Shown here: positions 28,639 through 31,930 of the stretch, piece by piece
Numbering within the stretch: position 1 is the first letter of the stretch
How the letters are laid out: each line of letters starts with the position of its first letter
Assembly: GCA_038245785.1 (NCBI GenBank)
Contig: JBBRSB010000016.1
Span: 32,609 to 96,608, forward strand
Origin: Gloeobacterales cyanobacterium
GTDB lineage: Bacteria > Cyanobacteriota > Cyanobacteriia > Gloeobacterales > PMM-0068
Length of the DNA stretch: 64,000 nucleotides
Direction: 5' to 3'
The notes under the pieces: generated by a model
What the model saw: the letters and a program-made list of their open reading frames with translations, nothing else
Told to the model about the DNA's origin: nothing
Databases searched by the model: none
Translations under genes and position numbers: made by a program

Positions 28639-28806
28639 CTGGCTTCGACTCCGCTCAGCCAGCAAAAGCCAGTGAAAAGACATCAAAGAAGCAGACCGTG
28701 AATTTAAGCTCCCTTTGGCTCTTGCTCCCTGAGCGGAGTCGTGTCCGGCACAAAGTACCTGCTGCCGTAGGCAGATTGAACAGGTAGGCGAAGCCGAGAA
28801 GGGAGC
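28639..28806. repeat. REP doublet 1 (inverted pair); second unit carries a 57-bp insert
   Basis: ctggcttcgactccgctcagccagc (28639) and gctccctgagcggagtc[28741-28797]gaagggagc. Confidence 0.85.
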
Positions 28807-28965
28807 GACAAGGCAATACAGGAGATCTTCATGTGGCCGAGGCATCGGCTGATTGGGCAGTAATCGCGATGAGAAAAAGATGCAGCGGTCAGACAGTGGG
28901 TGCAATCTTTAAGATGAATTCAAAAAACCTGAATCCAAAATGAGGGAAATTGCTCCTCTGTTTGA

Positions 28966-30396
28966 TTACTGCTGCGTTAAAGAGACAGTACTTTTTTCCA
29001 GCTGCAGAGCACGAGAGAACTCCGGTGCTTCTGCATAAAAGGGACTTTTGTATTTCAACCGATAGTAAAGCATCGGCACAATACCAATCAGAATTGAACC
29101 CACACTCAAGACGGCAATTGTCCGCTCAAGTTGGGTCAATTGATAAACAAAGAGCATCAACAAAAAGATAGCTGATATCAGCGGCCAAATGCCTTTGAGT
29201 AGCAGGGTCGGCAGGTTTTGCGCCAATTGCTGACGATAATACCAGACACAGGCAAATCCAGTCATCGCGTAGTAGACCGAAACCTGAACGCCAATCGCGC
29301 CGATTAAGCCTGTCATCACTTCACCCACACTAGGACTGGCACTCGATCCAATCAATAGCAGCAGCGCGAGAATGCCAATGACAAAGGTGGCTAACCAGGG
29401 TGTTTGAAAGGTCGGATGCAAGTCCCCAAAGCGTTGGCTAATGACACGATCGCGAGCCATCGAAAACAGCGTACGCGAACATTGTGTTAATTGCGTTTCG
29501 ATCGTCCCCACCGTACTCACCAGCACGGCCAGCACTGCAATGTTTCCCCAGGGATGCGGTAACACCTGATTCCCCAGCACGGCCAGCAAATTTGCTCCAG
29601 CCTTGTCAATTTGTTCGGGGGTCATGCCTATTTGGACGAGGTTCTGAATCATTTGAAACAGGAAAAAAACGCCAATCATGCCCAAAACGCCGCTGTAGCC
29701 AGGAGTTGAGTTCGAGCCTCTAGTCTCTTCAGCCACATTTGAAGAAACATCCCACCCAAAATAATAGAAGGTGGCAATTAACATCCCCGCCATAAAGGTC
29801 TTAAAGTCGCCAAAGCCAGTGGGTGAGAGCCAATTCCAGGAAAATGACTGCACTGGAACCGTAGAAAATTTGACCAGTGCCCCGATCGCCAGGGCCAGCA
29901 AACTAATCACTTCAATCGCTGTCATCAAACGCTGAAATCTAGCTGCAAAACCTACTCCCATTACGGTAATAGTGGCGACGGCAATAAACCATAAACTGCC
30001 TACAAGGGTCGCTAAGACCAAGTTCTCGGACCATTCGGTTGAAAATAACGATAGGGTGGCAACCCCGATCGGCAACGATGCTGCTGCCATAAAGAGGGTG
30101 CTCAAACTTAGGAATGTCCAACCCGACAGAAACCCCAAGGATGGCTTAATCGTGCGACCTACCCAGGCATAGGAAGCGCCTGCGTCCGATCGCCATTGGT
30201 TGAGATACATAAATGCAAAAGAAATGCCGAACATGGGAATAGCCGCATACAGCAATGCCGCTGGGGAAGCCAATCCCACAGCGGCAACGAGGGTAGCAGT
30301 CGTGGCATTGAGTGAATAAGAAGGAGCTGATCCAGCCACCGCCAAAGTAACCGTATCGATCAACCCGAGTGCCTCCTTCTTTAAACCTTTAGACAT
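28966..30396 (-). CDS. APC family amino acid permease
   Basis: About 12 TM segments; GSAPSYS, F.YFGWD...NVAEE, R.LFSMARD. Confidence 0.9.
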   Translation of the reverse strand: MSKGLKKEALGLIDTVTLAVAGSAPSYSLNATTATLVAAVGLASPAALLYAAIPMFGISFAFMYLNQWRSDAGASYAWVGRTIKPSLGFLSGWTFLSLSTLFMAAASLPIGVATLSLFSTEWSENLVLATLVGSLWFIAVATITVMGVGFAARFQRLMTAIEVISLLALAIGALVKFSTVPVQSFSWNWLSPTGFGDFKTFMAGMLIATFYYFGWDVSSNVAEETRGSNSTPGYSGVLGMIGVFFLFQMIQNLVQIGMTPEQIDKAGANLLAVLGNQVLPHPWGNIAVLAVLVSTVGTIETQLTQCSRTLFSMARDRVISQRFGDLHPTFQTPWLATFVIGILALLLLIGSSASPSVGEVMTGLIGAIGVQVSVYYAMTGFACVWYYRQQLAQNLPTLLLKGIWPLISAIFLLMLFVYQLTQLERTIAVLSVGSILIGIVPMLYYRLKYKSPFYAEAPEFSRALQLEKSTVSLTQQ

Positions 30397-30609
30397 TGCC
30401 TTACTCCGTTGTTGTATTTGTTGTGAATAATTTCAACCATGCAATCGCTTACATAATGGACGTGCTCAAGCCTGCCCGAGCCTATGTGAGGCCCGAGTTC
30501 CGATATAGGGCAGGAAGCATTCCCACGTATTTAAGATGAGGGCTATATTCAAATTCAATTAGCTGTTAGCTGTTGTATTCTCAAGCACATAATTGACTTG
30601 AATGTTGTG

Positions 30610-30760
30610 GCTCCCTTCTCGGCTTCGCCTACTGCCTCAATGCTCCTACGGAGCGCAGTACTTTGTGCTGGACACGGCTCCGCTCAGGGAACAATGCAAA
30701 GTCGAAGGGAAGCCAAGTTCTCTGAGCAGAATTAAGTTCCCTGAGCGGAGCCGAAGGGAA
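30610..30760. repeat. REP doublet 2; first unit carries a 57-bp insert
   Basis: gctcccttc[30619-30675]ggctccgctcaggga and ttccctgagcggagccgaagggaa (30737-30760). Confidence 0.85.
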
Positions 30761-30781
30761 GGGAATAATTTTGGAGGAGTG

Positions 30782-31212
30782 ATGCCCTATATGTATATGC
30801 TTGAGTGTGTTGATGACAGCTATTACACGGGCAGCACGACTAATTTAGAATTCGGCTGGAGCAGCACCAAAGTGGTTACGGGGCAAAGCATACGGCGAAG
30901 CGATTACCTGTGAGGTTAGTCTACTGCGAGTTTTTTGAGCACGTGGCGAATGCGTTCTATCGCGAGAAGCAGGTGCAGGGCTGGAGCCGCAAAAAGAAGC
31001 AGGCATTGATTTCGGGAGATACTAATCTATTGCATAAGCTGGCTGCATGTCAGAATAAGAGCCATTATTTGCTCCCTATGCTTCCTTCGGCTCCCTTCGA
31101 CAAGCGTTCGACTGAGGCTTCGACGGTGAGCTCAGCCGAACCGCTCACGCCGAAGTCTCAGGGCAGTGCGCTCAGGGAGCAAAAGCCCAAGCCAACGGAA
31201 GATAAGAGTTGA
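30782..31212 (+). pseudogene. GIY-YIG (UPF0213-like) nuclease with a frameshift
   Basis: MPYMYMLEC.D.SYYTGSTTNLE, then a frame change at ~30852 gives RLEQHQSG.GAKHTAKRLPV.LVY.E...AF.REKQVQGWSRKKK. Confidence 0.85.
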
Positions 31213-31276
31213 TGAATGTTCTTTACACATCTACTTCCATTCATACATCTTGCTGGCTGAGCGAAGTCGAAGCCAG
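31084..31276. repeat. REP doublet 3; first unit carries nested inserts
   Basis: ccttcggct[31093-31167]gcgctcagggagc and ttgctggctgagcgaagtcgaagccag (31250-31276). Confidence 0.8.
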
Positions 31277-31285
31277 GGAGCAAAG

Positions 31286-31930
31286 ATGAATTTGGAAAGT
31301 ATGAATCTAAGATGGGAAAAATTGCTTCTCCAATTTGGAGTAGAGCAACAAATGGCTCAGAGCTTATTTTTAGATTTGAGCAGGTTCTATTCCAGCCCAG
31401 AGCGTCACTACCATACCCTTACCCACATCCAGCACTTTCTCTCTGTAGTGGAAACGCTTACTCCAAAAGCAGAAAACTTGGCAGCTATTGAATTTGCTGC
31501 TTGGTTTCATGATCTTATCTACGATTCCAATGCTAAGGATAATGAGGAAAAAAGTGCTGACTATGCAGAATCTATTTTGAAAAGTCTAGCTATTCCAGGA
31601 GAAGTCATCGCTCAAGTTAAACGATTAATTCTCAGAACCAAGAGTCATCAAATCACTGAAGAAGATGACCTCTACACCAAAATCATGCTGGATGCCGATT
31701 TAGCTATTTTGGGCGTAGAGGATGCCGAGTATAGGAGATATGCCCAGGCTATAAGGTGGGAATATAGCTGGGTAGGAGATGAGGACTATTGGAAGGGAAG
31801 AACGCAATTTCTCCAGAGTCTTCTGGAAAGACCAAAAATATACCAGACAGAAGAGGCTTTTGAGGCCCTGGAAACAAAAGCAAGGAATAATCTTAGGGAA
31901 GAGCTCAATTCTATGCGCCACTTAAGCTAG
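31286..31930 (+). CDS. Predicted metal-dependent HD-superfamily phosphohydrolase
   Basis: Y..PERHYH.L.H, WFHDLIYD, DNEE.SA, LDADLAILG; GGAG RBS. Confidence 0.88.
   Translation: MNLESMNLRWEKLLLQFGVEQQMAQSLFLDLSRFYSSPERHYHTLTHIQHFLSVVETLTPKAENLAAIEFAAWFHDLIYDSNAKDNEEKSADYAESILKSLAIPGEVIAQVKRLILRTKSHQITEEDDLYTKIMLDADLAILGVEDAEYRRYAQAIRWEYSWVGDEDYWKGRTQFLQSLLERPKIYQTEEAFEALETKARNNLREELNSMRHLS

Follow-up and report, generated by a model that had tools for sequence, protein, structure and literature searches.

Two very short repeat units nested within REP-like palindromes of a Gloeobacterales cyanobacterium resemble small dispersed repeats

The window analysed here is a 64,000-nt stretch from a Gloeobacterales cyanobacterium (assembly GCA_038245785.1, contig JBBRSB010000016.1, positions 32,609 to 96,608 of the forward strand), whose genome (G000) comprises 5.0 Mb. 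A previous sequence-only reading had reported that two REP-like palindromes in this window are interrupted at the same position by a 57-nt insert, at 28741-28797 on the minus strand (copy A) and at 30619-30675 on the plus strand (copy B). Both stretches were confirmed, and each splits its palindrome at the same CCCTT|CG point. Because some copies start with G rather than C, so that the canonical CCCTT|CGAC target is left only when the boundaries are moved by one base, the insert ends are best placed at 28742-28798 and 30618-30674; the 57-nt skip observed in relatives is compatible with either placement. Each 57-mer is not a single element but a nest of two units, in which a 36-nt unit (Y36) lies inside a 21-nt unit (X21), which itself lies inside the REP. 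The features of the locus are as follows:

28639-28665, plus strand: inverted partner REP after glcD; in the relatives of runs X2 and X4, this repeat region holds a lone X21
28716-28741, minus strand: right half of the REP-like unit that hosts copy A (left half at about 28799-28806); the unit is intact in relatives
28742-28798, minus strand: composite copy A, 57 nt, made up of X21 and an inserted Y36 of subtype A; precisely these 57 nt are missing from the orthologous contigs of runs X2 and X4
28742-28750, minus strand: second part of the copy A X21, 9 nt
28751-28786, minus strand: copy A Y36, subtype A, with a 6-bp stem, a 6-nt bulge containing TCAAT, a 5-bp stem, a TAC loop (GTA on the other strand) and a 5-nt tail
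28787-28798, minus strand: first part of the copy A X21, 12 nt, with a 3-bp hairpin whose loop reads GAA on the plus strand
30610-30617, plus strand: left half of the REP that hosts copy B
30618-30674, plus strand: composite copy B, 57 nt, made up of X21 and an inserted Y36 of subtype B
30618-30629, plus strand: first part of the copy B X21, with a GGC-TTC-GCC hairpin
30630-30665, plus strand: copy B Y36, subtype B, 36 nt
30666-30674, plus strand: second part of the copy B X21
30675-30692, plus strand: right half of the REP that hosts copy B (inverted partner at 30736-30753)
30782-31071, plus strand: small REP-flanked GIY-YIG nuclease gene, UPF0213-like and frameshifted near 30852; a candidate mover

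Additional repeats and polymorphisms surround the nuclease gene. The GIY-YIG cassette (30711-31282) looks polymorphic, as it is skipped in one X2 contig and has a frame-restoring base in X4. After the gene, a repeat nest (31083-31180) includes a 26-nt stretch (31116-31141, with an inverted copy at 1144-1169) within a 33-nt-like unit in a REP, and this 33-nt-like unit also interrupts IS200 tnpA genes on contigs C43 and C31. A gene start at about 31277 (31283-31330) has a 75% copy between glcD and a permease gene (28911-28958), which may be a gene remnant.

Four runs were compared over the region, of which X2 and X4, from two other studies, hold orthologous contigs of 424 and 1,592 nt. At copy A, these contigs skip 57 nt (28740-28798) within unique flanking sequence and leave the REP intact. 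Since exactly 57 nt are absent at the orthologous site, the insertion was precise and recent. A lone X21 is present in the repeat region neighbouring copy A in both runs. At site B, the X4 contig holds the start of X21 followed by a REP, and the X2 contig shows a 54-nt skip, with the letters between unread. Further Y36 nests were found at loose contig ends in three runs, each a single-contig observation, and IS200 homologues with and without X21 provide additional empty sites that bracket X21 insertions.

X21 consists of the outer 12 and 9 bases joined without the core. A census pattern for this unit identified 26 empty and 9 filled sites in the genome, and did not capture a truncated copy or three filled copies whose tail differs. 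At all 35 scored sites, a T stands immediately to the left of X21, and insertion occurs without target duplication 3' of this T (R|A on the other strand). The earlier proposal that the element targets REPs stands in part: REPs are favoured (11 of the 35 scored sites read CCCTT|CG), but not exclusively, as X21 is also found at the ends of IS200 elements, within a tnpA gene and in further repeats.

By hand count, Y36 is present in about 17 copies in the genome, of which 8 belong to subtype A, 6 to subtype B, and 3 to a variant of B that is nested in B; a search with model R1 reported 14. Thirteen of the approximately 17 lie at the same point of X21, three are inside another Y36, and one is in a tnpB gene. 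The site within X21, as defined by the empty copies, is fixed at GCC|TG. The GCCTG word occurs 12,444 times in the genome, and by itself this word therefore does not account for the preference of Y36 for X21; either Y36 recognises the site specifically, or it is the composite that is carried on X21 ends. Each Y36 subtype is found in at least two X21 alleles, an observation that speaks for some of the insertions having been independent, or for conversion. The copy in tnpB (subtype B, G000:C2:305835) adds 12 codons in frame near the C-terminus and has no X21 around it. All of the unit lengths seen (15, 21, 36, and 57 nt) are multiples of three, the shortest being a unit that sits in the bulge of two Y36-A copies. 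Overall, the claim of a single mobile element divides: mobility is borne out by the empty orthologous site, but X21 and Y36 each also occur without the other.

Several additional nests and variants were observed. The 15-nt unit occupies one and the same target, CCTGTT|C, in two repeat contexts that are unrelated to each other (G000:C37:14214, C94:635, C32:60208, and C49:15271). A deep nest upstream of an rRNA-like region (G000:C40:1543-1752) contains X21, two Y36-B units, and a 90-nt insert, whose outer stem is as in Y36-A and whose inner stem is different, possibly representing a third subtype. A truncated Y36-B/X21 copy lies just past a tRNA-like 3' end (G000:C8:83417), and an X21 stem variant is located approximately 90 nt from the Y36-B copy in tnpB, in that element's end.

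The two units differ in their distribution. X21 is present in both sister genomes (11 and 19 copies) and absent from 38 other genomes searched, whereas no Y36-filled X21 was found in the two sister genomes, and Y36 occurs in one of 401 cyanobacterial genomes in a phylum-wide search. A model search of other genomes, put forward with the sequence-only reading as a check, was carried out with model R1 over 61 genomes; it returned its 14 matches in the window's genome, and outside it only weak matches (best E 0.034) that lack the full fold. A strict Y36 pattern gave one match in genome contigs and two in metagenome contigs, all without stems and attributable to chance, and a looser pattern in viral contigs gave no match with both stems among 27; these viral, metagenome and species-genome scans need an exact motif match and may omit very near records. 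A BLAST search of plasmids returned five short chance matches only, and no autonomous element with Y36-like ends was found.

The central claim of the earlier reading, that the stems of copies A and B differ in sequence and yet remain paired, was upheld. Of the 11 pairs, six are changed on both sides and none on just one, in comparison to one change among 14 unpaired positions (Fisher p 0.021), and for random re-pairing of the six changed pairs the chance is about (1/3)^6 = 0.0014. However, copies A and B represent two Y36 subfamilies, and the six changed pairs are therefore not six independent observations. Among nine distinct Y36 rows chosen from the copies, 98% of cells are paired and 6 of 11 pairs are changed on both sides, relative to 24-44% in slid controls. 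Control (a) of the covariation tool does not correct for kinship, and the number of independent events behind the covariation is small, comprising the split between A and B and a change of two pairs within B. One-sided stem changes are present in three landed copies (on contigs C72 and C40, and the outer copy on C10). Because landed copies pick up mismatches in this way, selection appears to act when the unit moves and not in place.

The outer tcggc/gc(c/t)gg stem, previously read as preserved by wobble pairing, behaves differently: it shows no covariation, has five broken cells, and is broken in X21 stem variants. In contrast, the 3-bp GGC-TNC-GCC hairpin of X21 is 100% paired in eight rows spanning the alleles, has three stem types, and covaries. 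ViennaRNA applied to X21 alone prefers the outer stem to this small hairpin, and the case for the hairpin is thus made by covariation and not by predicted energy. Accordingly, the notion that a folded single strand of DNA or RNA is under selection is retained for the inner stems, which covary, and not for the outer stem, which is not supported.

With a single exception (AAA), the hairpin loops read C-GNA-G on one strand, with N free. Among the 26 empty X21 copies, the loop is GAA in 10, GGA in 9, and GCA in 7; GTA is found in one contig of run X10 and is also the loop of Y36. According to excerpts of a review, GNA is the only one of the NNN triloops to form a very stable mini-hairpin in DNA, and the stability of a related hairpin is far lower as RNA than as DNA (PMC13037366). 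As the loops follow this DNA motif with a free middle base, the working form is probably single-stranded DNA rather than RNA.

Taken together, the features of the locus very probably represent nested mobile units of the small dispersed repeat (SDR) type. The explanation favoured here, with some reservation as to the whole, is that this is a nest of the SDR kind, in which Y36 and X21 would adopt their folds as single-stranded DNA and travel as very small single-stranded circles, to be cut and rejoined by a borrowed HUH (Y1) transposase acting in trans. Y36 would be excised as a closed 36-nt dumbbell, in which, once the ends are joined, G36 would stack on T1 and pair with C32. In the computed circular fold, this extra C32-G36 pair closes to give a 7-bp stem and a second triloop, which in the nested B variant reads C-GAA-G on the GNA strand. 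Both C32 and G36 are present in 12 of 14 scored copies, with the three bases between them taking three forms. Since the C32-G36 pair is unstacked in the landed form, its retention would be simply explained by a dumbbell circle; conservation of G36 may also be due to plain descent, and the predicted circle is put forward as a possibility that falls somewhat short of an even chance.

Precise joining without duplication, single-stranded hairpins, and a possible circle fit the chemistry of HUH enzymes, which cut and rejoin single-stranded DNA and use single-stranded circles (PMC6006769 and PMC8266576, in excerpt). By analogy, an HUH transposase of the host genome, either the REP-associated enzyme on contig C9 or an IS200 TnpA, is a tentative candidate for the mover. 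The former is an intact, subclass-2.4-like REP transposase (G000:C9:17766-18326) that scores 70.9 bits, below the family cut-off of 80; it has its own, different double-foot REP, which is inserted in frame inside the gene and has 14 exact copies in the genome. IS200 tnpA genes are also present. The E. coli TnpA-REP enzyme cuts C|T (same excerpts), and this rule, with C as the attacking base, holds for the left junction and for the majority of Y36 targets, whereas the right junction (G|T) and the target in tnpB (T|T) depart from it. Y1 transposases occur in all three genomes that carry X21, but 7 of 11 X21-free genomes of the order have them as well; thus, co-occurrence across genomes did not discriminate, and no enzyme was tied to X21 or Y36. 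In addition, a small contig (G000:C219) carries a Y1 transposase whose flanking repeats are unlike the rest of the genome, and may have entered the assembly as foreign DNA. Reverse transcriptases and IS110 recombinases, the latter also present in the genome, are disfavoured as movers by the loop rule and the breakpoints. The most far-reaching form of the proposal is rather unlikely: that Y36 would be a 36-base transposon, a closed single-stranded dumbbell with two triloops that is site-specific for another micro-element, and would reveal a chemistry common to SDRs in which GNA mini-hairpins are inserted 5' of A by a hijacked HUH enzyme.

Alternatively, the same nested units could be moved by the REP-flanked GIY-YIG nuclease, through Ssn-like nicking of single-stranded DNA, together with host ligation or repair. 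The gene lies approximately 100 nt from copy B between REPs, and its cassette is absent from one X2 contig and apparently frame-intact in X4. However, a hydrolytic nuclease alone cannot rejoin DNA. The gene is also frameshifted in the window, its nearest solved relatives are UPF0213 proteins, and the sister genomes, with 11 and 19 copies of X21, lack a close homologue to this query (one weak match is not REP-flanked). Ssn nucleases cut single-stranded DNA beside flanking hairpins, although SsnA lost activity when a stem was changed with pairing kept, unlike the covarying stems described here (PMC11893778, in excerpt), and the pattern for the Ssn motif (SRM) has no match in the window. This nuclease is therefore considered an improbable mover.

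An explanation that dispenses with a dedicated enzyme has a still smaller chance of being correct. Replication template switching and repeat-to-repeat conversion would copy one arm onto the other, giving compensatory changes without selection. The stems of A and B are rotations of one trinucleotide (CTG, TGC, GCT), such that a few slips could link them, and X21 alleles are mixed among the filled copies as conversion would produce. In contrast, insertion is precise, with a constant length and target although the surrounding sequences are unrelated. Moreover, conservation is higher in the unpaired bulge and loops (1 of 14 positions changed) than in the stems (6 of 11 pairs), which arm copying does not predict.

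It is very improbable that the folded form is RNA, whether a small structured RNA or a reverse-transcribed unit. The stems would also be stable as RNA, and there are 11 reverse-transcriptase matches in the genome. Nevertheless, the Rfam search suggested at the outset returned one chance match (E 0.71) and none at gathering score, the copies lie in either orientation relative to neighbouring genes, and the GNA rule, with its free middle base and its register fixed by covariation, is a DNA motif.

Two further readings can be given hardly any weight. The first is that of the sequence-only reading, a single 57-bp, REP-targeting element folding into three stems. In its favour, the orthologous site lacks the full 57 nt, and the composite, which is found at many loci, may often travel as a unit on X21 ends; however, X21 and Y36 both occur alone, the outer stem does not covary, and the same Y36 subtype is found in different X21 alleles. 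As an origin, a 57-bp single element is refuted by the empty X21 copies, although the composite may still travel as such. The second, that Y36 acts as a miniature IS110 donor for a bridge-RNA recombinase, draws on the word CTTGTA, which occurs in the left end of five of seven IS110-family matches in the genome and at the joined ends of most Y36 copies, and on the targeting of REPs by IS110 elements, but IS621-type recombination centres on a CT core flanking the element (PMC11208160, in excerpt for both points), whereas Y36 breaks after CTTG and not in CT, its ends share only one T, and that CT is missing in 4 of 14 copies. The donor idea was rejected on these breakpoints.

The nested units of the favoured explanation can be compared with several known systems. 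They differ from MITEs in that the 57-nt skip is exact, with one ambiguous base, and G-start alleles have no duplication, whereas MITEs have terminal inverted repeats and a target duplication. Unlike REPIN/BIME elements, which are inverted REP doublets, the inserts are single, and inverted pairs occur only among the host REPs. Similar to IS110/IS621, insertion into REPs is scarless and the CTTGTA word is found at the joined ends; however, there is no CT core at both ends and neither a recombinase nor a bridge RNA inside Y36 (excerpts of PMC11208160). In comparison to Ssn nucleases and their NTS/SRM repeats, a small single-domain GIY-YIG gene with flanking hairpin repeats adjoins copy B, but the window contains no SRM pattern, the UPF0213-like protein is broken, and any link would concern the host REP and not the insert (PMC11893778, in excerpt).

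The likeness to GTAG/CGTC REPs and their subclass 2.4 transposases includes small single-stranded DNA hairpins, in-frame insertion into genes, and the presence of a subclass enzyme in the genome. Nevertheless, neither Y36 nor X21 has the unpaired tag at the foot of a 5-13 bp stem that characterises these REPs. Y36 is not a doublet and lacks a 5' GTAG foot (GTAC lies inside the stem); X21 starts with TGTC on one strand, but its stem is 3 bp rather than 8-9 bp; and neither unit flanks a transposase gene (PMC3733652 and PMC6006769, in excerpt, for the REP features). Precise, frame-keeping insertion of 12 codons, as seen in tnpB, is a route by which proteins could gain short peptides. A dumbbell circle for a 36-base unit would provide a testable handle on the movement of ultra-small elements.

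The closest counterparts are the SDRs of the Nostocaceae, which Elhai et al. are said to have described in 2008 as repeats of 21-27 nt, reportedly nested in other repeats and in themselves and with hairpins kept by compensatory changes. X21 and Y36 are likewise very short, dispersed in multiple copies, and precisely inserted with empty sites, and they share the reported nesting in other repeats and in themselves and the retention of hairpins by compensatory changes. In contrast, Y36 is 36 nt and thus outside the reported size range, which X21 falls within at 21 nt; Y36 is further distinguished by a bulged stem of 11 bp and by its predicted closure into a dumbbell, and the host is outside the Nostocaceae. 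By analogy, therefore, X21 works like an SDR in all features tested, and Y36 does likewise except for the reported size. The sequence-only reading had been offered on the understanding that the element matches no described repeat family; this no longer holds at the level of class, where the nest is SDR-like, whereas in sequence the likeness observed extends to the loop and target grammar of the SDR5-like 21-mers described below.

A more specific parallel concerns SDR5, which inserts between bases 3 and 4 of HIP1 (PMC4390886, in excerpt). The excerpted text of PMC5861425 reports no SDR in HIP1-rich genomes outside the Nostocaceae, and the host genome is HIP1-poor (242 HIP1). In the large cyanobacterial genome G064, 21-mers that split HIP1 at G|A gave 168 matches, and the 100 of these that were listed include a recurring SDR5-like family with two C-GNA-G hairpins and swapped compensatory stems. 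X21 shares with these 21-mers the same length, the C-GNA-G hairpin, and the G|A target. A literature search found no report showing how SDR-type units of a few dozen bases move. The nest is a precisely mapped variant of this mechanistically open class, and the locus offers exact boundaries, an orthologous site without the insert, a rule for the target, a DNA fold that is strand-specific and common to SDR5-like units, and a predicted intermediate, with which the question of SDR movement becomes an assay at the scale of oligonucleotides.
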